A stretch of DNA of 64,000 nt from NCBI GenBank assembly GCA_965226795.1, contig CBDDDZ010000005.1, positions 2,368,001 to 2,432,000 on the forward strand, written 5' to 3'. The notes beneath the pieces are model-generated. The model saw nothing but the letters and a program-made list of their open reading frames with translations, searched no databases and was not told the DNA's origin. The stretch comes from Candidatus Latescibacterota bacterium (lineage in GTDB: Bacteria > Latescibacterota > UBA2968 > GCA-2709665). The translations under genes were made by a program, and so were the position numbers. This document shows positions 1,251 through 16,581 of the stretch, one piece after another (position 1 is the first letter of the stretch; each line of letters opens with the position of its first letter).

Positions 1251-2156
1251 TCACAACAGGAACCTATCGAACAACAGGGCGATCCAAAGCAGAGGCAAAT
1301 GAATCAGCGTCGTGCGCAACAGCCGCCTCGCGTTTTGCTCGGACCGGGTTCTGGCAAACACAATACCTGAATACAGGAGGCAGAGCCCCGTTGCCGCGGC
1401 CACGGCAATGTAAAGCACACCGCCCAAACCCACCAGCATGGGGAGCATGGAAAAAGCCAGCAGGATTGCGCTGTATATGTTGATCTGCCTGGCCGTCCTC
1501 CGGCCCGCCGGATCGCCTGTCGTAATCATCTTGAATCCGCCGCGGACGTAGTCCGCCCTGTAGATCCAGGCAATAGAGAAAAAGTGCGGGAACTGCCAGA
1601 AAAACAGAATACCGAACAGCAGCCACGCGCCGCCGCCGATCTCCCCCTGCGCCGCGGCCCAGCCGCCCATGGGCGGCAACGCCCCCGCGATGGCGCCGAC
1701 GGTGGTATTGTGCGTCGATTTCCGCTTCAGCGGGGTATACAGGAAAAGATAAATGACCGACGTCAACGCCGCCAGAAAGCCCGCCAACCAGTTAATTTTC
1801 AGCCCCATATAAAGGATGCCGGTTCCGGACAACAGCAGCCCGAAAAGTAAGGCCTCTTCCGGATGCAGGCGGCCGGCGGGCAGGGGCCGGTTCGCGGTCC
1901 GCTTCATCCGGGCATCCATTTTGCGCTCCAGGAACTGATTCAGCACCGCCGAACCACTCGCGACCAGGACCGTTGCCAGCAGCGTATGCAGGAGTGGAAG
2001 GAACTCGAAGACACCGGCCGCGCCCAGAACAAAACCCACCGCTGTGCTCAAAGCGACGAATACGGTGATTTTGGGTTTGGTGAGGGCCACGTAGTCCATC
2101 ACGCGCACCCACGATAGCGCCAGACTCGCTGCCCCGGTCTCAACCTGCGGTTTCAT
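1251..2156 (-). CDS. ctaB: Protoheme IX farnesyltransferase (heme O synthase)
   Basis: LTKPKI, D-x-x-M-x-RT-x-x-RPLP-x-GR, YTPLKR, WQFPHF motifs; GGAGG RBS before ATG 2156. Confidence 0.95.
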   Translation of the reverse strand: MKPQVETGAASLALSWVRVMDYVALTKPKITVFVALSTAVGFVLGAAGVFEFLPLLHTLLATVLVASGSAVLNQFLERKMDARMKRTANRPLPAGRLHPEEALLFGLLLSGTGILYMGLKINWLAGFLAALTSVIYLFLYTPLKRKSTHNTTVGAIAGALPPMGGWAAAQGEIGGGAWLLFGILFFWQFPHFFSIAWIYRADYVRGGFKMITTGDPAGRRTARQINIYSAILLAFSMLPMLVGLGGVLYIAVAAATGLCLLYSGIVFARTRSEQNARRLLRTTLIHLPLLWIALLFDRFLL

Positions 2157-2176
2157 AATAGTAAAACCTCCAACAC

Positions 2177-3181
2177 TCAGCGTGCCGCGCCCGTGAATAC
2201 GATCCCCGTATCTGTAGCAGCATGCATCCGCCATACGCGAAGCGTAAGCACCAGGCTGGAAGCCAGCACCGCCGCACCCGCCACGACGTGTAACGTCGTA
2301 ACCGAGACGTCCTTACCGGTCCAGATCACCAGGGCGCCCAGAGCAAGCTGGACAAACAGCAGCCCCAGTAGCGCCACCGAGGGCCTCGTCAATTCGGGTC
2401 GGGTCTTGTGCGCGCGCAGGACGCGGCAAACACCCCAGATCAGAACACCAGACACAACAACGGCCCAGGCCCTATGGGCAAAGTGAATGGCCACACGCGT
2501 CCGGTACGTATCGATCGAGATGGGAAACGGGTCGGTAGCATCGACCGTCAATTCGGAAAACGGCGGAATCAGACGGCCAAAGGAAAGTGGAAAATCGGGA
2601 ATGGCCAGACCGGACTCGGTATGCCGCATCAGTGCGCCGATTACCAGTTGAACGAAAACCACCGTTGTGCCGGCCGCAGCCAGCCATTTCAGCGGTACAC
2701 CACCCGTCTCCGGTAACGGCTCGTCGGCCGTCCGCCACCCGGCCGACGTAAACAGCGCGATACCAACGGTTAGACAGAAAAAGCCCTGCGCCAGGCAGGC
2801 GTGGCTTACGGAAATCCACGTGGGCAGGAGATACAGCACCGTCAGACCGCCCAGCAGACCCTGCAGGACAATGGAGACCAGGGCCGCCACGCCCAGGGCC
2901 CGCAACCAACGCCGCGCTTCACGACGCCACAACCAGATCGCAAGAACTGTGGTAAGGATCCCCACAAAGGTAGCCACCATCCGGTGTCCGTGTTCGTAGA
3001 AGATCCCGCCGACCATGGGCGGAAAAACCATTCCGTATGAAAGCGGCCAGTCCGGAACCGCCAGCCCTGAACCCGTACTGCTGACCATTGCGCCGGCGAA
3101 AATTAAAAAAAGGGTCGCGCCGGCCGTGAACACTGAAAACCGGTGCAGCCAGCGATACCGCTGCGACATCGTGATATCCAT
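2177..3181 (-). CDS. ctaA: Heme A synthase (COX15/CtaA family)
   Basis: GSGLAVPDWP, EHGHR, HFAHR and further His-bearing TM helices; next to ctaB; start approximate. Confidence 0.9.
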   Translation of the reverse strand: MDITMSQRYRWLHRFSVFTAGATLFLIFAGAMVSSTGSGLAVPDWPLSYGMVFPPMVGGIFYEHGHRMVATFVGILTTVLAIWLWRREARRWLRALGVAALVSIVLQGLLGGLTVLYLLPTWISVSHACLAQGFFCLTVGIALFTSAGWRTADEPLPETGGVPLKWLAAAGTTVVFVQLVIGALMRHTESGLAIPDFPLSFGRLIPPFSELTVDATDPFPISIDTYRTRVAIHFAHRAWAVVVSGVLIWGVCRVLRAHKTRPELTRPSVALLGLLFVQLALGALVIWTGKDVSVTTLHVVAGAAVLASSLVLTLRVWRMHAATDTGIVFTGAAR

Positions 3182-3272
3182 TTCCGTCCGGCTCACCCGC
3201 CAGCCCCGCTTATTCCGCGTCGGCGGCAAGCCACTTGCCGTTTATATCGGGAAAACCGGATCCTCGCCTGGA

Positions 3273-4208: not shown

Positions 4209-4808
4209 TTACAGCAGGTAGAGAATCGGGAACAGAAAGATCCACACCAGATCCACGAAGTGCCAGTAGAGTCCGGCGCATTCGATCCGGTTGACAAACT
4301 GCTCCGGCGCCGTGTGCCAGAGCTTGCTGCCCGGTAACAGCAGGTAGAGATTCACGACGATGCCACCGATCACGTGCAGTCCATGCAGGCCGGTCATCGT
4401 AAAATACGTGGCGTAAAACATGTTGGTGGACGGATAGATGCCAAGATGAAATTTGTGGGTGTATTCGAAGTACTTAACAACCAGGAACACAAACGCCAGT
4501 AATACCGTCAGGCCCAGATAAAGTTTGAACCTGCCGAAATTGTCCATTTTCAAGGATGCCCAGGACATCACCATGGTTACACTGGAGGCGATGAGAACGA
4601 ACGTATTGAGCGTGGCCATCGGCACGTTCAACAACTCCCAGCCATGCGGCCACGTCGGCGCGCCCACCCTGAGCAGGACCAGCGTTGAAAACAGCGCGCC
4701 AAACAACATCACCTCGGACGCCAGGAACAACCAGATCCCGAACTTCCCGTTATACACCCCCGTTATCGGATGCGGCTCCACCGTGTGGGGAATTTCTTCA
4801 ACGGACAC
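4209..4808 (-). CDS. coxC: Cytochrome c oxidase subunit III (short form)
   Basis: WLFLASEVMLF, TGLHGLHV, YWHFVDLVW. Confidence 0.95.
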   Translation of the reverse strand: MSVEEIPHTVEPHPITGVYNGKFGIWLFLASEVMLFGALFSTLVLLRVGAPTWPHGWELLNVPMATLNTFVLIASSVTMVMSWASLKMDNFGRFKLYLGLTVLLAFVFLVVKYFEYTHKFHLGIYPSTNMFYATYFTMTGLHGLHVIGGIVVNLYLLLPGSKLWHTAPEQFVNRIECAGLYWHFVDLVWIFLFPILYLL

Positions 4809-4873
4809 CGTTTATCTCCTTTGCATTGTCGCGGGCCGACACCTCGGTTCCAACGCCCTCGCGGGCGGCGGTG

Positions 4874-6664
4874 TTAATCGTCGTCCGCGGGCGTGGGCGC
4901 TGGCTCGGGTTGGGCCACCTGCCCGTTTTCAGACGCGTATTGTGGCGTAAAGTCACTTGAGGCCCCGGGCACGCTGTATTCGTACGGCCCGCGGTAGACG
5001 GTGGGCGTAACCGCGAAATTCCCGTGCGGAGGCGGCGTGGGCGTGGCCCACTCCAGGGTCGTGGCCTGCCACGGATTGTCCGACGCCACCTTCCGGCCCT
5101 TCCGTATACTCATAAAGAAATTGACGATAAAGAATATCTGCGCCAGTCCAAGCAGCCATGCAGACCAGGAACTCATGGTTGTCAGGCCCTGCACCTGCGC
5201 CCCGTAAGCGTACTGTGTCTGGTCGTAAAGTCGCCTGGAAACACCGGCCATCCCTACGAACAACATCGGCATGAACACGCCGTTCATAAAGATCAGGCTG
5301 CACCAGAAATGCAGCTTGCCCAGTGCCTCGTTCATCATGCGCCCGGTCACCTTGGGAAACCAGTGATAGACCCCGGCGAACAGCGCGAATATCGTGCCCG
5401 GCGCCACCACATAGTGGAAATGGCCGATCACGTAATACGTGTCGTGCAAATGCAGATCCGCGGCCGTGAGGCCCAGCGGCAGCCCCGTCAACCCCCCGAT
5501 GGCGAACATGGGGATGAATGCCAGGCAGAACAGCATGGGCACCGAAAACCGGATTGACGCGCCGTGCAGGCTCAATGCGAACGCCGTCAGGATAATTACG
5601 GACGGGATGGAGATGATCATGGTCGTGGCCTGGAAGAAGGTACTGATTGTGGTTCCCATCCCCGTCATGAACATGTGATGCGCCCAGACGGTAAACGACA
5701 GGAACCCAAGAGCGATAATCGAGTAGACCAGCGCGCGATACCCCCAGAGCGGCCGGCGGGTATTGTTGGCCACAATCTCGCCGACGATGCCCATCGCCGG
5801 CAGAATCAGTACGTAAACTTCCGGATGCGCAAGGAACCAGAACAGGTGCTGCCACAATAGCGGACTGCCACCGCCGCTCACTTCCAGCGCCTGCCCTGTT
5901 ACGACCAGACCGCTCGGCATGAAGAAGCTGGTACCCCCGATCCGATCCATGAGTTGCAGCACCCCGGCGGCCTCGAGCGGAGGGAACGCCAGCAGCAGCA
6001 GGAACGCCGTCACGAACTGCGCCCAAACAAAAAACGGCAGCCGGAAGAACGACAGCCCCTCGGCCCTCATCTGAACCGTCGTTACGATAAAATTAACCGA
6101 ACCCAGAAGAGACGACGTGATCAGGGCCACCATGCCCCACAACCACCAGGTCTGGCCCGTTGGCGCGATAATGGACAAGGGTGGATAGGACGTCCAGCCG
6201 GACTGAGCCGCGCCCGAGGGAACGAAAAAGCTGGCCAGCATAATGATGCCGCCCACGAAAAATACCCAATAGCTCGCCATGTTGAGCTTGGGAAACGCCA
6301 TATCCGGCGCGCCGATCTGAAGCGGCAGCACGTAGTTCCCGAAACCGCCCACGGCCAGCGGAACCACGCCGAGGAACACCATGATGGTGCCGTGCATGGC
6401 CCCCAGCTGGTTGTAAAACTCGGGCACCATCACGCCTTCCGGCATGTTCACCGCACTGAACAACTTGCCTATCCAGGGCATTGGCTGTCCGGGATACGCC
6501 AACTGCCAACGCATCATCATCATCAGGCAGAAGCCGAAAAAAAGGAAAACCAGGGCGGAGACCGCGTACTGAATCCCAATGACCTTGTGATCTACGGAAA
6601 ACACGTACTTGCGCCAGAACGGCAACTCATGGTGTCCGTGATCACCGTGCGCTTGCTCAGCCAT
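4874..6664 (-). CDS. coxA: Cytochrome c oxidase subunit I, A-family heme-copper oxidase
   Basis: DHKVIG, HGTIM, DMAFPKLN, HPEVY, WAHHM, HDT, HFHY, RR motifs. Confidence 0.98.
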   Translation of the reverse strand: MAEQAHGDHGHHELPFWRKYVFSVDHKVIGIQYAVSALVFLFFGFCLMMMMRWQLAYPGQPMPWIGKLFSAVNMPEGVMVPEFYNQLGAMHGTIMVFLGVVPLAVGGFGNYVLPLQIGAPDMAFPKLNMASYWVFFVGGIIMLASFFVPSGAAQSGWTSYPPLSIIAPTGQTWWLWGMVALITSSLLGSVNFIVTTVQMRAEGLSFFRLPFFVWAQFVTAFLLLLAFPPLEAAGVLQLMDRIGGTSFFMPSGLVVTGQALEVSGGGSPLLWQHLFWFLAHPEVYVLILPAMGIVGEIVANNTRRPLWGYRALVYSIIALGFLSFTVWAHHMFMTGMGTTISTFFQATTMIISIPSVIILTAFALSLHGASIRFSVPMLFCLAFIPMFAIGGLTGLPLGLTAADLHLHDTYYVIGHFHYVVAPGTIFALFAGVYHWFPKVTGRMMNEALGKLHFWCSLIFMNGVFMPMLFVGMAGVSRRLYDQTQYAYGAQVQGLTTMSSWSAWLLGLAQIFFIVNFFMSIRKGRKVASDNPWQATTLEWATPTPPPHGNFAVTPTVYRGPYEYSVPGASSDFTPQYASENGQVAQPEPAPTPADDD

Positions 6665-6676
6665 AAATTAGGCTCC

Positions 6677-7447
6677 TTAAAAGAAAAAATCGTCTTCCTC
6701 ATCCGCGGCGCCGGACTGTTCATCGAACCAGGACCGGAACGCCTCTTCCGACTCCACCGTCAACTGCCCGCGCATGCGATAGTGCCCCAGACCGCACAAT
6801 TGAGCGCACGCGATGTCAAATGTACCGGCCTTTGTTGCCTCGAACCAGATCTTGATGTCCTGACCGGGAATCGCGTCTTGCGTCAATCGCATCACCGGGA
6901 TCTTGAAGCTGTGAATGACATCCTTCGACGAGATATGCGCAATTACGGGCTTGTCCTTCACAATATGCAGGTTGTTGATGGCATTGAAATCGTCCTTGCC
7001 GTTCGGATCGTCCGGATCCAGCCCCAACAGATTGTCGGCGCGCACCAACTGCGGCGCCGTCCGTCCGAAAATTCCGTCTTTCCCTGAATAGTGGATATTC
7101 CATGCAAATTGCTCGGGCACCACCCGCACGACCAGTGCGTCGGATTCGTCGGGAAACGCATGTTTGAAATCCGCCCAGAGCGGCATGGAGAGTCCGATAA
7201 GCAGCACGGCCTCGACGACGATTACGCCGACCTCCACGTATTTGGCGAGTTTCCCCTTCACGGGATGATAGGTCGCCGAAGGGTGTGTCCTCCTCCGATA
7301 ACGGATAAGGCAATAGACGAAGAAGACCCCCCAACCCAGAAACAGCGCCACCATAAAGACATGCAGCCAATTGATCAGCCAATCCACGGTCGCCCCGTGG
7401 GTTGAGATATCAATTGGCAGCCAGTAACCGTACACCTTTTCTTGCAT
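6677..7447 (-). CDS. coxB: Cytochrome c oxidase subunit II (CuA; no fused cytochrome c)
   Basis: Two TM helices, DVIHSF and CAQLCGLGHYRM CuA ligands. Confidence 0.95.
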   Translation of the reverse strand: MQEKVYGYWLPIDISTHGATVDWLINWLHVFMVALFLGWGVFFVYCLIRYRRRTHPSATYHPVKGKLAKYVEVGVIVVEAVLLIGLSMPLWADFKHAFPDESDALVVRVVPEQFAWNIHYSGKDGIFGRTAPQLVRADNLLGLDPDDPNGKDDFNAINNLHIVKDKPVIAHISSKDVIHSFKIPVMRLTQDAIPGQDIKIWFEATKAGTFDIACAQLCGLGHYRMRGQLTVESEEAFRSWFDEQSGAADEEDDFFF

Positions 7448-7519
7448 TCGGGACCCCTCCCGTATTGTCGCTGGGCGGACCGGATAATCCGACCGCGCTG
7501 TCACTCCGACGATGTGTGC

Positions 7520-8269
7520 CTATTTTCTTGGCTTTCTCGGCTTGATTTTGAACATGAAATCCAGGGTTTTGGACTCGCCTTCGGCGACCGTGATCTCCTC
7601 GGTCATCGTGCCAAGCCGCTCGCTTTCGTGCCACGCCTCGACAGTATATGTGCCCGCGGGCAACCCCGAGATGTCGAATTTGCCGCCCTCTCCGCTGACA
7701 GCGAAGAACGGATGTTCCATCACACCTATATAGGACTGCATCCAGGGATGTACGTCGCATTTGACCGGTATCATTACCTCGGGATTCGCGAACGAAATCG
7801 TGGTCTTTTTCAAAAATTTCGGCATCGCTCTATTGACTTCGGCGGAGTTCTGCGGCTTCGGATGGATGTTGTGGAGAGTCCCGTCGCTGTTCAACACCGT
7901 AATCGACTGTCCTGCCATAACGCCCAGGACGTGGGGTTTGTATACGCAACCGTGCTGATCCAGGACGGCGCCCTCGGAGGGCGTGTCGAACTTCGTGCCC
8001 TCCAACCCCTTCTTGACGTAAACAAACACGTTGTGCAGACCACCGTCGTCCTCGACCACAACGACCTCGCTAAATGCCGGCCCGTCGGCGTGTTTTCCCG
8101 CGCAGACCGGATCGGCCGCCATCTGTATTTTCTTGCGGCCCGGCTTCTTGCCGCCCGGAAACTCCAGTTTGATGGTTCCGGAAACCGTCGCGCCCGCCAA
8201 CGCGTCGCCAGACGCGAAACAGGCGAAACCCAGCGTAATGAGCGTTGCGACAATCCCACGTTGTTTCAT
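7520..8269 (-). CDS. Exported cupredoxin-like / carboxypeptidase-regulatory-like domain protein
   Basis: Signal peptide; HNIH...CDVHPWM (type-1 Cu-like H/C/H/M); C-terminal GLPAGTYTVEAWHE beta-sandwich. Confidence 0.75.
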   Translation of the reverse strand: MKQRGIVATLITLGFACFASGDALAGATVSGTIKLEFPGGKKPGRKKIQMAADPVCAGKHADGPAFSEVVVVEDDGGLHNVFVYVKKGLEGTKFDTPSEGAVLDQHGCVYKPHVLGVMAGQSITVLNSDGTLHNIHPKPQNSAEVNRAMPKFLKKTTISFANPEVMIPVKCDVHPWMQSYIGVMEHPFFAVSGEGGKFDISGLPAGTYTVEAWHESERLGTMTEEITVAEGESKTLDFMFKIKPRKPRK

Positions 8270-11529: not shown

Positions 11530-12606
11530 TCAGATATTGAAAAAATATTCTGGAATGGCGACGATGTATTTCAGGTTGAAAAGCCAGCGAAGCAACATCT
11601 TAATGGGGAGGGCGACCATGCAGAGGAAGAATAAGATCATCACGCTATAGCGGGCGAATCCCATGGTCTTGTAGAATTCCTTGAACACAGTTTGCGCCAG
11701 TACAGGCGGCGGCACCAGAAAATACAGGATAACCAGCAGGAAGCCCCATATTTCGCGCGTCAACCAGAAGGATGGCAAACCCGTGCCCAGCCATTGGACG
11801 TAGATATATTCCGACAGATTGACGTTGACCAGCGCTACCAGTTTGTGTACGTCCCAGAATTCGTAGGGCCCGAAAAAGTTCCAGTTCGGTCCGCGCAGAA
11901 ACGTACCGATCATGATCAGCATCACCCACAACACCACAAAACCGAACAGAAACACCGTAATGGCGAACCGGCGTTCCTTGAACGTGTAGTAGCCGAGTCC
12001 CTTGGAATTCCGATCGATATAAGGAATCGCCATGAGACCCACAATAACAAGGGTGGGTAGAACAACCCCGGCGATCCATGGATCGTAATAAACCAGCATT
12101 TCCTGCAGTCCCAGGAAATACCAGGGCGCCTTGGAAGGATTGGGGGTTTTCGCGGGGTTGGCCGGCTCTTCGATAGGCGCCTTGATGAGCACGGACCAGA
12201 GAATCAGGAAGACCGTGGCAAGGGTCAGGCAGATCAACTCCGTGTAGACCAGATGGGGCCAAGTGAGAACCTTCTCTTTGAATTCGGCTTTCTCAACCGG
12301 TCCCTCGCCCCGTGCGATTCGCTCGTCGTTGTCGTACCCCTGCTTCAGGGCGTACCACACGAAAAAACCGACCAGGAACAGCAACATGACAATTGGGATA
12401 TTGTCGCCCTTGGTCACGATGATACGGAAATTCTCATCCTGAAAGCTTACCACGAAGAATACGATCGAGGCGATGAGAGCGAGGAGACCAAACCGGACGG
12501 TCCAGACCCAGCGGGTACGCAAAGCCAGAATAAAAAGAACGGCAAACAGCGGCAGGAAATATTGAGGCGTGAGAAGCCAGTTAACGAAGCCCTTGAGAAC
12601 GTCCAT
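11530..12606 (-). CDS. Cytochrome b6-type complex subunit IV (PetD/QcrC-like) with extra TM helices
   Basis: TWPHL, APIEEPANPAKTPNPSKAPWYF (PEWY-equivalent), PYIDR. Confidence 0.85.
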   Translation of the reverse strand: MDVLKGFVNWLLTPQYFLPLFAVLFILALRTRWVWTVRFGLLALIASIVFFVVSFQDENFRIIVTKGDNIPIVMLLFLVGFFVWYALKQGYDNDERIARGEGPVEKAEFKEKVLTWPHLVYTELICLTLATVFLILWSVLIKAPIEEPANPAKTPNPSKAPWYFLGLQEMLVYYDPWIAGVVLPTLVIVGLMAIPYIDRNSKGLGYYTFKERRFAITVFLFGFVVLWVMLIMIGTFLRGPNWNFFGPYEFWDVHKLVALVNVNLSEYIYVQWLGTGLPSFWLTREIWGFLLVILYFLVPPPVLAQTVFKEFYKTMGFARYSVMILFFLCMVALPIKMLLRWLFNLKYIVAIPEYFFNI

Positions 12607-12651: not shown

Positions 12652-13437
12652 CTACATCGGCCCGGAGATCCCGCCGTCTTTTCGGACCCGCCAGAAGTGA
12701 ACGGCCATTAATACAGCCGCTACAAACGGGATGAACAGACAATGCAGGACATAGAACCTCAGCAGCGCGCCCTCCCCGACAAACCGGCCCCCCAACAGCG
12801 CGAATCGGGCATCGTTGCCGGCGTGGACCAGGTTGATATCGCCAAGCATAAGGAACGCCGCTCCTGGCCCCTCGTGCCCGAGAAAAGGCGTTGCCCGCGC
12901 CATATTCGATCCTACAGTAATGGCCCAGATGGCAAGCTGGTCCCAGGGCAACAGATACCCGGTAAAGCTCAGCAGCAACGTGAGAAGAAGCAGTATGACG
13001 CCAATCGCCCAGTTGAACTCCCGTGGAGGCTTATAGGAACCCGTCATAAACACGCGCAACATGTGCAGCCAGACCGTGATAATCATCGCGTGGGCGCCCC
13101 ACCGGTGAATCTCCCGCATGATACCCAGCGGCACCTGCTCGCCCAGGTCGATGATGTCGGTGTAGGCGTACTCGAGTGTGGGCCGGTAGTAAAACATGAG
13201 CAGAATGCCGGTGATGGTCTCAATCAGGAAAATAAAAAAGGTGAGCCCGCCCATACACCACGTGTAGCGCACCCGGATACCTGATTTCGGGGTCCGAACG
13301 GGATGCAGGTGCAGAAATACATTGGTCAACACCACCTGCGCGCGGCCGCGTTCGTCTCTCGGCACGTCGTGCCTGAAGATGGACTTCCAGATCTGAGAGC
13401 GTTTGGTCCGGTCCAGGAGGCCGGAAATCTTCGGCAT
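12652..13437 (-). CDS. Cytochrome b, split b6-type (PetB/QcrB-like)
   Basis: CMGG (heme ci Cys position), HRWGAH...[11 protein letters not shown], 14-residue His spacing in helix D, C-terminal GISGPM. Confidence 0.95.
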
Positions 13438-13519: not shown

Positions 13520-14452
13520 TTAGATCCGCAAAAAGGATTCCGGGTTGTCCCAGTGACCCTTCTCGTACTGGAACTTCCGGGTTTTGTCCACCAGCACCTG
13601 GCCATCCTCAGCCAGTACGATGCGGGCCCTTTCGAGCGGCCGCGGCGCCGGCCCCTCGAAATTAATGCCGGTCATATAAAAACCACTGCCGTGACACGGA
13701 CACTTGAATTTCTTTTCGTTGCCCAGCCAGTTGGGCGTGCAACCCAGATGGGTGCACACCGAAATGAGGGCGAACATATCCTGCGTGGACTTGACAATCC
13801 AGACGCTGAACTTGTCCTTCCAGCGTTCATCCACGCCCAGGTCGTAATCTTCCGGAAATCCGATCGTGAAAGACTGAGGGGGCTCGAAAAGGACATTCGG
13901 AAACAGGAAGCGCGCAAACCCCAGGAGCCCAGCCGCGGACGCGGCCGCAAACGCCGCCCAGGCCAGGGTCAACCACGTAAAAAACCCCCGGCGGGTGGTC
14001 ATGCCACCTTCGGCGACGGCCCGTGTTCTTTCCGGTCCTGGTCGGATTGCGGGCGGAGCCGGCGAGGTCTGCACGATCACGCGCTCTTCGGCCGGCGCAT
14101 CCGTTTTTTGCGTTAACGCCCGGGCGGCAGCGGCCCGGGCTGCCGTGGACGCGGCCTTTTTCGCGGGCGCGCCGGCTGGCGCCGCTCCACCACCCCCGCG
14201 CGCCTTTCGCATCAACTCGGCCTTGGCCTTTGCACGGGCAACGCGATCCTGGATCTCGTTCAGCGACGAAAGATCGACTTCGGCCTCACCGGAACCGCCC
14301 CCCGATTCGTCCGTAGCCTTCCCGGAAGCTCCCTCTGCCGGCGTTGCCGCGGCCTCTCTGGCCTTGCGCATCGCTTCCGCCTTGGCCCTGGCCCTGGCTA
14401 CCCGATCCGGAATTTCGTCGAATTCCGAGAGATCGATATTTTCTTCCGACAT
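13520..14452 (-). CDS. Rieske 2Fe-2S subunit with about 150-aa repeated N-terminal extension
   Basis: CTHLGC and CPCHGS boxes; internal TRRGFF Tat motif plus TM; two N-terminal repeats. Confidence 0.95.
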
Positions 14453-14571
14453 GGAAAACCCCAGAAACCGGTCACCTGGTTTTCGAACCGAAACTCTTTA
14501 GGACTATATAATCGTATAAGTTAATGAAATACCGGAAATTGAACCACTTACAAGCCCACAGACACCCGGCC

Positions 14572-14600
14572 AATATATCGAAACAACCCCGGATTGTCAA
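14572..14600 (-). promoter_or_regulatory. Sigma70-type promoter of the respiratory supercluster
   Basis: TTGACA-17-TATATT on the minus strand upstream of the Rieske gene. Confidence 0.7.
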
Positions 14601-14706
14601 GCTGGATTTTCTGTAGATTCGCACCCTCCTGGGAGAACAGGCGAGGGATCCGACGCGCGCCTGAAAGGGCGGGATCCCTCGCTGAATATCCATCGATTCA
14701 TGCGGC

Positions 14707-15615
14707 TCATTTCTCCCCCCATTCATTCAGGACTTCAATGGCCGCCTGCCTGACCCGCAGGTCCGGATCCTGCTGGCGGAGTCGCTGCAGCGAGGGAGCC
14801 AGGGACCTGGCGTCCAGAATGCCCACGGCCCTGATCGCTTCGACCAGAATATTACGCCGCCCCTCCCCGCTTATCCCATCGAAACCGTCCAGGTATCCCG
14901 GGCTAAGCATCTCACCCAGAACTTCAAAGCCCGCGATATTGCCGGCTGCCGCCAACTGCAGGGCGGCGTTCCAGCGAACGTCGGGTGCCCGGTCGTGAAG
15001 CGCCTGTTCGAGTGCCGGCGGCACTCGAGGGTCATCGAGACCCCCCAGTGCGTAAACCGCGGCTTTACGCAGGCCGGCATCGTCGCCGGACGCGATCCTT
15101 TTAAGGTTGGACACAGCGCTCGGGTCTCCCTGGGCCCTGAGCGAGAACATCGCGTTGATCCGGGTCTCGTCGTCGGGATCATCCAAAGCGGAAATCAGGA
15201 CACCGACAAGCTTGGGATCCTGCACCCTTCCCATTGCGGCAGCCAGGAACCGCCTCACGCGCGGGTCGTCCGAACGGGAAGCCTCAAACACGCGGATCAA
15301 CTCTCCAACGAACCTGCGGCCGATCCGACCCTCGCGCTTTTCCTTTTCGAGCACCGTGGCCAGTTCGTACGCCGCCTGCCAGCGGCTGTTGATGCCGCCG
15401 ACGCGAATCGTATTGAGATAGTCCTCCGCCGTTTTTTTCTCGGCCGTTAACAGCCCCAATCCCAGGTAGATTGCAAGCGCCACCAGGATAATGGCCACCG
15501 GAAAAATGACGAATTGGGAAACCAGCCTTGCCCGGGAGACTTCCGCGTCCGAAACCGGAGCGCTGGCATCTTCGGCGATTCTTCTGAGTTCCTCTTCGGG
15601 AGTCGGATGGTCCAT
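14707..15615 (-). CDS. HEAT-repeat protein with N-terminal TM anchor
   Basis: Repeats DDPRVRRFLAAAMG, DPDDETRINAMFSL, DDAGLRKAAVYALG, APDVRWNAALQL, DPDLRVRQAAIEVL. Confidence 0.88.
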   Translation of the reverse strand: MDHPTPEEELRRIAEDASAPVSDAEVSRARLVSQFVIFPVAIILVALAIYLGLGLLTAEKKTAEDYLNTIRVGGINSRWQAAYELATVLEKEKREGRIGRRFVGELIRVFEASRSDDPRVRRFLAAAMGRVQDPKLVGVLISALDDPDDETRINAMFSLRAQGDPSAVSNLKRIASGDDAGLRKAAVYALGGLDDPRVPPALEQALHDRAPDVRWNAALQLAAAGNIAGFEVLGEMLSPGYLDGFDGISGEGRRNILVEAIRAVGILDARSLAPSLQRLRQQDPDLRVRQAAIEVLNEWGEK

Positions 15616-15683
15616 TCGGCAACCTCTATCTTGAACAACGGCAAACGTTATCCCTGGAGTCGACGCGCGAAACCGCACGGTCC

Positions 15684-15787
15684 AATATATACAGAGGTGG
15701 CACGCGCTGTCAAGATTTTGGTCCTCGCCGAAGTTTGCCCGCCCCTGGCCCTTCGCCCTTGACAACCCTTAAGAAAGACCTTATTTT
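15684..15787. promoter_or_regulatory. Divergent sigma70-type promoter pair (HEAT gene / ferredoxin)
   Basis: Minus: TTGACA(15713-15708)-18-TATATT; plus: TTGACA(15759-15764)-17-TATTTT. Confidence 0.55.
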
Positions 15788-15846
15788 AGCGTCGGATCAT
15801 ACAAACCCTAATACACAAATTCCGCTCAACAGGAGATCTCGCCCCC

Positions 15847-16581
15847 GTGAACGTCGACCTTACCCAGTTTGACGGCATCACCGACCGGGTGGCGCGGGCA
15901 AGGGCCAAAGCCGAGGCCATGCGGAAAGCCAAGCAGGGCGCCGGGGACGCCGCGGAATCCGCACCCGAGGCGGCCGCCTCGGAACTGGAAACCGCACAGG
16001 CTTCCGTGGAGCCCGAAAAGGAGCCCGCTGGCCTTACCATTCTCGAATTCAGGCCCGGCATCCATTTCAAACTGAACGGACGGGCCGGCCGGACTGTGGG
16101 CATCCGTTATGACCTGGTCAGTTTCGTCTACGATGACGATCCGGACCAACTCGTCACCGCGGACCGATACCGCCTCAGCCACGCCCACGCCGAAGGTACG
16201 CTGGAATTCGCTCCGAAGTCGGAGGTCTACCGTCCTGAGCGATTCGCCAAAAAAGAACGCATCGACTTCCACGAACACCTCTGGCTGGAAACCCGCTCCG
16301 GCATGGCCTCCAAGAAGAGGCGGCCCCGGCATATCGCCATTATCAATCCGGACTATTGCACCGGTTGCAACGCCTGTATCGAGGTCTGTCCAACTGACTG
16401 TATCGAAGAAGTAGACGTGGCTGATGCCGGGCTGGACGGCATCGGTACTTTTTGTGAAGTCCGGCTCGAAGACTGCATCGGATGCATACAATGTGTACAT
16501 ATCTGCCCATGGGAAGCCATCGAAATGGTAGACACCCAGCGGGTTGAAGACGCATATGGCATTCCCGTCGGGACTTTGTAG
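15847..16581 (+). CDS. 2x[4Fe-4S] ferredoxin with long N-terminal extension
   Basis: CTGCNACIEVCP and CIGCIQCVHICP; AGGAG RBS and GTG start; N-terminal motif shared with the Rieske protein. Confidence 0.9.
   Translation: MNVDLTQFDGITDRVARARAKAEAMRKAKQGAGDAAESAPEAAASELETAQASVEPEKEPAGLTILEFRPGIHFKLNGRAGRTVGIRYDLVSFVYDDDPDQLVTADRYRLSHAHAEGTLEFAPKSEVYRPERFAKKERIDFHEHLWLETRSGMASKKRRPRHIAIINPDYCTGCNACIEVCPTDCIEEVDVADAGLDGIGTFCEVRLEDCIGCIQCVHICPWEAIEMVDTQRVEDAYGIPVGTL

Follow-up and report, generated by a model that had tools for sequence, protein, structure and literature searches.

How a low-potential ferredoxin might be wired to an aerobic, quinone-based respiratory chain is the question raised by a locus of a Candidatus Latescibacterota bacterium (assembly GCA_965226795.1, contig CBDDDZ010000005.1, positions 2,368,001 to 2,432,000; this whole stretch of 64,000 nucleotides is referred to as the window). 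Here, the Rieske iron–sulfur (Fe-S) subunit of a cytochrome b6-type complex carries two copies of a 27-residue peptide, which we call the tag, and a divergently encoded protein that ends in a 2x[4Fe-4S] ferredoxin domain, hereafter the partner, carries a third. Whether ferredoxin can pass electrons directly to a b6-type complex by way of haem cn has been disputed among photosynthesis researchers for two decades; we know of no stable ferredoxin–b6 complex that is available for study. We tentatively propose that the tag is a docking or tethering module that would hold the ferredoxin at the cytoplasmic (n) face of the Rieske/b6 complex.

A peptide tag common to the Rieske subunit and its ferredoxin partner

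An initial annotation, made from the letters of the window alone, had reported three copies of the tag. All three are found in the translations exactly as described, with 17 of the 27 columns invariant: two copies lie in the N-terminal tail of the Rieske protein and one directly follows the GTG start of the partner (Table 1). A hidden Markov model (HMM) built from these copies was run against the six-frame translation of the 5.41-Mb genome, comprising 101,937 open segments of at least 30 residues, and the three window copies were the sole matches, the next sequence having an E-value of 0.52. Any pair of copies shares 18–21 of 27 residues and only 52–56 of 81 bases, and 10–15 of the conserved residues in each pair are specified by different codons; conservation is therefore at the level of the protein. 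As the initial annotation had held, the tag is under protein-level selection and is not a DNA repeat.

Across 31 copies from three Latescibacterota families (f1–f3), residues D2, L3, I9, D11, R12, R15, A16 and K19 are invariant. The first half of the tag, DLSxFDxIxD, is acidic and hydrophobic with a net charge of −3, and the second half is a basic, Ala-rich helix with a net charge of +5. In AlphaFold2 (AF2) models the peptide forms a short helix joined through a turn to a long one, at a predicted local distance difference test (pLDDT) score of about 70–85. Because the hydrophobic moment is low (0.22 per residue on the Kyte–Doolittle scale, with a mean hydropathy of −1.2) and basic residues occupy all faces, the predicted helix does not appear to be of the classical membrane-seeking amphipathic type.

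The tag had not been recognized as a named domain, and our searches agree: it has no family match in Pfam or NCBIfam, and a profile search of PDB sequences returned as its best hit an annexin at E = 2.6, a chance match. Literature searches found no description of the tag and no paper on Latescibacterota Rieske or ferredoxin subunits.

The tag is confined to one locus type

To see how far the tag extends, we scanned 168 Latescibacterota genomes with a profile of the 31 copies. It occurs in 30 of them: all 21 genomes of f1, 6 of 31 in f2, 2 of 3 in f3, and the source genome. Overall there are 82 matches, two or three per genome, on opposite strands and about 1.5 kb apart. A Rieske orthologue of at least 72% identity is present in exactly those 30 genomes, and an orthologue of the HEAT-repeat protein encoded between the two tag-bearing genes is present in 31, the same 30 and one further genome, G048. 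The order partner, HEAT, Rieske, b6 is kept in 14 of 14 tag loci examined, and neither that order nor the tag was seen in any of five loci with more distant Rieske orthologues (53–64% identity). The tag is thus inherited with the whole locus, which comprises the genes for the partner, the HEAT protein, Rieske, b6, subunit IV, a multihaem cytochrome c and the cox genes. The initial annotation had made conservation at orthologous loci a condition of its reading, and the tag is kept in every orthologous locus recovered.

Beyond these genomes the tag is rare. Among 1.84 billion representative proteins, only 30 profile matches had E ≤ 1e-3, and among 5.8 billion protein clusters there were 68 matches at E ≤ 0.01 within 8000 scored candidates. 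The 68 carriers divide into 32 with a Rieske domain (PF00355), 21 with Fer4 families and 15 without a Pfam family; those of the 15 that were inspected are fragments or frameshifted copies of the same two proteins, or a membrane-anchored form of the barrel protein described below. Carriers are therefore not functionally random, in keeping with the earlier prediction: the tag itself is found on the Rieske protein and its dedicated ferredoxin/barrel partner only, and distant relatives occur on NuoI and SRPBCC proteins. In the proteins of the locus its place is invariably the N-terminus or the N-terminal tail, with a variable linker behind it.

Structure of the partner protein

The partner is built from the tag (residues 3–29), an acidic linker (30–62), a putative Tudor/SH3-like barrel (approximately 63–128), a basic connector and the ferredoxin domain (161–244). 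The last contains two CxxCxxCxxxCP motifs, CTGCNACIEVCP and CIGCIQCVHICP, the pattern of bacterial 2x[4Fe-4S] ferredoxins, and is strongly acidic, with a charge of −13. In the AF2 model of the whole protein (mean pLDDT 57.8), the barrel of about 65 residues scores 75–91 and the Fe-S domain is poorly modelled (35–60). Structure comparison of the barrel gave 7pik_A (Z 7.2, root-mean-square deviation (rmsd) 3.0, 68 residues aligned), 4uy4_A (Z 6.5) and CarD, 4l5g_A (Z 6.2, rmsd 1.8, 51 aligned). The list of fold matches consists mostly of Tudor, CarD/UvrD-Tudor, KOW and FeoA barrels with Z of 5–7.2, all below 8, which is a consistent yet moderate signal. A search of the ESM Atlas with the barrel gave no usable match.

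The tag is N-terminal in 36 of the 38 protein clusters that have the middle domain of the partner, the other two having a disrupted N-terminus and a decayed tag, respectively; the word search behind this count finds only fused ferredoxins and is blind to the more divergent, membrane-anchored version of the protein, which the profile search recovered. That version belongs to family f3 (genomes G077 and G079), where the partner is split into two genes. The product of one has two tags and the barrel, ends in a membrane hairpin of two helices and lacks any cluster-binding motif; the other encodes an untagged 2x[4Fe-4S] ferredoxin of 105 residues, alignable to the fused partner over its C-terminal half. 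From the fused form set beside the split form, we infer by gene-fusion logic that the barrel would be the adaptor of the ferredoxin. The partner is thus more than the soluble 2x[4Fe-4S] ferredoxin of the initial description: its ferredoxin domain is fused to a tag and a barrel, and in f3 the protein is split and membrane-anchored.

Conserved islands in the Rieske tail

The Rieske protein begins with a cytoplasmic N-terminal tail of 150 residues, continues through a twin-arginine motif (TTRRGFF) and a membrane anchor, and ends in the Rieske domain, with both the CTHLGC and CPCHGS boxes present in its translation. A conservation profile of 14 Rieske proteins with two tag copies resolves four conserved islands in the tail, separated by variable linkers: the two tags, residues 95–114 and residues 124–142. 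The Ala/Gly/Pro/Glu-rich linker that the initial annotation placed after each copy is there and is poorly conserved in the same profile. Strictly kept tag residues combined with variable linkers form a pattern typical of a peptide that would be read by a folded partner. The number of tags on the Rieske protein varies by genus, with one copy in some and two in others.

AF2 modelling of Rieske residues 1–100 (alignment of 25 rows) gave helices at 8–11, 14–35 and 62–84, with pLDDT of about 85 and 70–80 and a predicted template modelling score (pTM) of 0.27. No confident packing of tag on tag was seen in this model, which counts neither as support nor as counter-evidence.

The Pro-rich island of the tail (residues 124–142; 14027–14083, minus strand) adjoins the twin-arginine motif and is conserved as the tags are. 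It contains a PxxP-like peptide, which together with the SH3-like barrel of the partner makes a candidate lead.

Distant relatives on NuoI-like and SRPBCC proteins

The nearest relative of the tag, judged by profile comparison, appears to be an equally undescribed domain on NuoI proteins of Marinimicrobia. These NuoI-like 2x[4Fe-4S] proteins (P0021, P0110–P0128) carry one to three C-terminal copies of a domain of about 60 residues, set on linkers, and 5 of 22 NuoI-type relatives have a source name, Candidatus Marinimicrobia or Fidelibacterota. The tag profile matches P0021 and P0022 with E of about 1e-7 against the 1.84 billion proteins, and hhalign aligns the tag with the NuoI-type domain over 36 columns with a probability of 96.6% and an E-value of 4.7e-10. 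The core of the tag is homologous to the first 36 columns of the domain. Both have D, L, I, D, R, R, A and K at +0, +1, +7, +9, +10, +13, +16 and +17, and in both cases the units recur along linkers of a respiratory 2x[4Fe-4S] subunit. They differ in position, the NuoI domain being C-terminal and the tag N-terminal, and in length: copies on NuoI run on for about 30 helical residues that form two C-terminal helices, whereas the tag gives way to a variable Gly/Ala/Pro/Glu linker. The alignment accordingly ends at column 36, and the tag does not amount to the full domain of about 60 residues.

With the NuoI-type relatives, the family is again found on a 2x[4Fe-4S] subunit, at what is likely an electron-entry site. 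One metagenome contig (L128:306-4170) carries nuoC, nuoD, nuoH and nuoI with the domain, and in this one locus nuoEFG does not lie between nuoD and nuoH. A metagenome scan for the NuoI-type domain confirmed at least four among the 588 candidate stretches listed, all four on NuoI-like proteins.

Related repeats also occur, three or four per protein, at the C-terminus of membrane-anchored SRPBCC (polyketide-cyclase/START-like) proteins, with E of 2e-5 to 5e-4. The SRPBCC carriers P0025, P0027 and P0029 have the repeat INxIEDRVxRAKAKSxLVKAKR, and one of their clusters has 45 members.

A proposed docking model for the tag and its alternatives

How might one peptide serve two proteins? The reading that we prefer, if tentatively, is docking. 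It accounts best for the tag because the tag is exclusive to these two proteins, combines strict residues with free linkers, lies at the ends of flexible tails, is inherited together with the locus, and is found on a partner that is fused in some genomes and split in others. Also in its favour are the low hydrophobic moment of the helix, the related domain on NuoI, the small ferredoxin in a paralogous Rieske/b6 operon of G079, the 2-oxoacid:ferredoxin oxidoreductase genes of the source genome, the Cys kept in b6 and the presence of the locus in RNA libraries. The tag would be a helix–turn–helix peptide on the flexible cytoplasmic tails of the Rieske protein and of the barrel–ferredoxin partner, and would bring the two together. 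It may do so by pairing with another tag, by binding a shared receptor, such as the HEAT protein or an n-side surface of b6/subunit IV, or by way of Rieske tags that bind the acidic ferredoxin domain. Once tethered, the 2x[4Fe-4S] clusters could exchange electrons, in either direction, with haems bn/cn on the n side or with the Qi site; electron delivery to haem cn or Qi, which the initial annotation had suggested, we purely infer.

Several observations weigh against docking. Tag copies resemble each other as much between genomes as within one (19.6 and 19.8 identities of 27, respectively, in a count where the N-masked Rieske fragment of one locus was mislabelled as partner), so that no co-variation signal of direct pairing emerges; the single-chain AF2 models do not support such pairing either, though they do not count against it. 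In G048, the HEAT gene and a related complex occur without tag or partner. The Marinimicrobia domain was found on NuoI-like proteins only and not on two partners, so a tag shared by two proteins is no general feature of the family. The f3 partner is predicted to be anchored in the membrane already, so membrane tethering would not be the sole purpose of the tag. A ferredoxin with its own tag copy would be odd if the tag simply bound ferredoxin. Finally, one fused-ferredoxin cluster, P0145 (211 residues, on a 1.5-kb contig), has a decayed N-terminal tag.

In a special case of docking that we consider unlikely, the basic tag helix captures the acidic 2x[4Fe-4S] domain and the presence of the tag on both proteins is incidental. 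The Rieske tail, the anchored barrel protein and the C-terminus of Marinimicrobia NuoI would all then concentrate ferredoxin at an electron-entry site. The charges fit, +5 on the tag helix and −13 on the ferredoxin domain; so do the related domain on NuoI, whose operon has nuoD and nuoH with no nuoEFG in between, and the f3 arrangement, in which the tags are on a barrel protein without Fe-S clusters beside an untagged small ferredoxin. NdhI, too, is reported to bind ferredoxin in a positively charged pocket with the aid of small accessory subunits, one of them SH3-like (PMC7021789). Electrostatics, however, leave the invariant acidic and hydrophobic half (D2, L3, D7, I9, D11) unexplained, and 36 of the 38 fused-ferredoxin clusters keep a tag of their own. 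Binding to the membrane surface or to anionic lipids, by which the helices would hold the ferredoxin fusion at the membrane periphery and enrich acidic lipids near the complex, seems quite unlikely given the low moment and hydropathy of the helix, the invariantly acidic first half, and the membrane anchors that the Rieske and f3 partner proteins already possess. It would nonetheless suit the fact that every carrier is a membrane protein or the partner of a membrane complex, the tandem copies on flexible linkers, and the f1/f2 ferredoxin fusion, which lacks the membrane hairpin seen in f3.

The position of the tag, at the extreme N-terminus of both proteins and ahead of the twin-arginine motif in Rieske, would also be compatible with an assembly or quality-control signal read by a common chaperone, whether for twin-arginine translocation (Tat) proofreading, as an Fe-S delivery adaptor or as a protease adaptor that balances the subunits; both window proteins are Fe-S proteins. 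We regard this as very unlikely, since the tags of f3 are on the clusterless barrel protein and not on the adjoining small ferredoxin, the partner has no twin-arginine motif, NuoI and SRPBCC proteins have their related copies at the C-terminus, and the locus offers no candidate chaperone gene except that of the HEAT protein. Among the genes of the locus, a Pfam scan revealed neither a Tat proofreading chaperone nor a microcompartment-type shell protein that would bind such a peptide. Least credible of all is a lineage-specific, low-complexity decoration without specific function. Ala/Lys/Arg-rich tails do occur on other redox subunits, such as the repeats of Escherichia coli RsxC, and the linkers are of low complexity, but eight columns are invariant across f1–f3, each type of copy is conserved orthologously, and the synonymous changes show purifying selection.

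Docking may also be cast more widely, as one undescribed domain family that would hard-wire 2x[4Fe-4S] ferredoxins to quinone-reactive complexes in the FCB group: the b6-type complex in Latescibacterota and, in Marinimicrobia, a complex I whose nuoD and nuoH genes have no nuoEFG between them in the single locus observed. On this view the Latescibacterota complex would act as a natural ferredoxin:quinone or quinol:ferredoxin oxidoreductase through haem cn and would provide a genetically fixed model for the long-debated path from ferredoxin to b6f. We consider this broader proposal unlikely.

Relation to known systems

Parking an Fe-S protein at the negative side of a quinone-reactive complex is known; what is new here is a peptide tag common to both partners, together with a barrel adaptor. 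The closest parallel is in anammox bacteria. In the available portion of a report on Kuenenia stuttgartiensis, its Rieske/cytochrome b complexes have a negative-side NAD(P) oxidoreductase/Fe-S subunit, towards which electron bifurcation has been proposed (PMC12954380). The extra Fe-S protein is proposed there to exchange electrons with haems bn/cn (PMC12954380). Both systems have a b6-type Rieske/b complex, subunit IV and a multihaem cytochrome c together with an additional Fe-S protein, which here would likewise lie on the negative side, but the anammox subunit is a flavoprotein with several clusters and is encoded inside the operon; that portion of the report describes no common peptide tag (PMC12954380), and the proposal has yet to be proven.

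In cyanobacterial NDH-1, the ferredoxin site, with positively charged surfaces on the 2x[4Fe-4S] subunit NdhI of this quinone reductase, is formed with small accessory proteins, among them the SH3-like NdhS (PMC7021789). NdhS recalls the putative Tudor/SH3-like barrel of the partner; there is no sequence relation, and NDH-1 uses a free [2Fe-2S] ferredoxin and has no repeated tag on flexible tails (PMC7021789). The n-side haem cn of the b6f complex, too, has been suggested to take electrons from ferredoxins (PMC5600118), and the corresponding Cys is kept in the b6 of the window. The association of ferredoxin or ferredoxin–NADP reductase (FNR) with b6f is transient and debated in chloroplasts and cyanobacteria (PMC5600118). 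Unlike in b6f systems, the ferredoxin gene here is fixed beside the operon, the tag is common to it and to Rieske, and the setting is an aerobic respiratory chain with an aa3-type oxidase.

The tail of E. coli RsxC has tandem units of about 32 residues, each an Ala/Lys/Arg-rich helix and a linker, on an Fe-S-binding subunit of a membrane complex, but lacks the DLSxFDxIxDR half of the tag. We therefore do not follow the initial annotation in likening the tag to RnfC tails beyond composition: as a candidate member of the RnfC/RsxC repeats it was rejected, with three tag HMMs giving only negative domain scores on RsxC of strain K-12 (database size 1).

What sets this locus apart is that a ferredoxin module is genetically tied to a b6-type complex, by a divergent gene that is co-inherited with it and by the tag that it shares with Rieske. 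If the tag does dock both proteins, defined and expressible peptides and domains would make the ferredoxin-to-b6 question testable. It would then be a new small docking domain among the parts of respiratory complexes and an undescribed wiring of ferredoxin to a quinone-based chain. It would also suggest how marine and sponge-associated Latescibacterota, with their 2-oxoacid:ferredoxin oxidoreductase genes, might link low-potential ferredoxin to an aerobic quinol oxidase chain.

Organization of the locus

The features of the locus are collected in Table 1. The HEAT gene is the first of the Rieske/b6 operon and lies between the two tag-bearing genes, and the partner gene is divergent from it. 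NCBIfam models of the b6-f iron-sulfur subunit match the Rieske protein with scores below cut-off. Cytochrome b is split, with PF00033 and PF00032 on separate genes, and the best PDB relatives of the b6 subunit are b6 chains of b6f complexes (E = 4e-41). Cys61 of the b6 query aligns to Cys35 of the solved b6 chains, which we take to be the attachment site of haem cn; the initial assignment of a b6-type complex with a haem ci/cn site is supported by this conserved Cys.

Table 1. Features of the Rieske/b6 locus and its ferredoxin partner, in window coordinates.
Feature	Position	Strand	Basis
Multihaem cytochrome c, 1025 residues	8370..11447	minus	Pfam
Subunit IV-like protein	11530..12606	minus	Pfam
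Cytochrome b6-type subunit	12652..13437	minus	Pfam Cytochrome_B
Rieske [2Fe-2S] subunit, 310 residues	13520..14452	minus	PF00355, E 5e-8
Rieske islands, residues 95-114 (Ala/Lys/Arg-rich) and 124-142 (Pro-rich)	14027..14170	minus	conservation profile
Tag copy 2, Rieske residues 59-85	14198..14278	minus	HMM domain E 5.7e-17
Tag copy 1, Rieske residues 6-32	14357..14437	minus	HMM domain E 5.1e-17
HEAT-repeat protein, operon gene 1, single N-terminal membrane helix	14707..15615	minus	Pfam HEAT_2, E 4e-25
Divergent intergenic region between HEAT operon and partner gene	15616..15846		sequence
Partner protein, 244 residues, C-terminal 2x[4Fe-4S] domain	15847..16581	plus	Pfam Fer4 families
Partner tag copy, residues 3-29, directly after GTG start	15853..15933	plus	HMM E 2.5e-17

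Downstream of the multihaem cytochrome c gene lie genes for CoxII, CoxI, CoxIII, CtaA and CtaB, which include those of an aa3-type oxidase. These cox/cta genes (4209–8269 and 1251–3229, minus strand) continue the Rieske/b6 operon on the same strand throughout, and the gene of a CarboxypepD_reg-like protein of 249 residues separates that of the multihaem cytochrome c from that of CoxII. Such an arrangement points to a combined quinol oxidase chain, and the operon is part of an aerobic respiratory chain with an aa3-type oxidase. Elsewhere, the source genome has 2-oxoacid:ferredoxin oxidoreductase genes, with three POR_N matches above cut-off.

Related operons in other genomes show variations on this arrangement. 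In G048, the HEAT gene sits after the multihaem cytochrome c gene, and a distant Rieske protein (64% core identity; L113:9476-9826, minus strand) has a long N-terminal tail in which another module of about 42 residues, EQLRAAAEALGIEV, occurs twice. A search of that genome with the module returned the two copies themselves and a chance match (E = 0.05) in the gene for ribosomal protein S3; with the module on no other G048 protein, a parallel matching-tag system appears to be absent there. In a second Rieske/b6 operon of G079, the genes for subunit IV and the multihaem cytochrome c flank one for a small 2x[4Fe-4S] ferredoxin without a tag (L117:10397-10654), and from this paralogous operon it follows that ferredoxins recur with Rieske/b6 complexes. 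In G071, a polyferredoxin gene comes after the Rieske/b6 operon (L116:2845-3396).

RNA-library contigs

Three studies, sponge-associated where named, have RNA libraries whose assembled contigs include the locus; such contigs show presence in the libraries and neither levels nor true transcript ends. A variant-strain contig, X12, from another study than those whose contigs break in the divergent gap, spans this intergenic gap, and one contig end within the gap is an adapter-like loose end. In two studies, contigs that cover the HEAT side stop at 15667, 15669 and 15716, and those that cover the ferredoxin side start at 15814 and 15815. This hints weakly at two divergent transcripts and at a ferredoxin mRNA whose start would lie about 33 nt upstream of the GTG.

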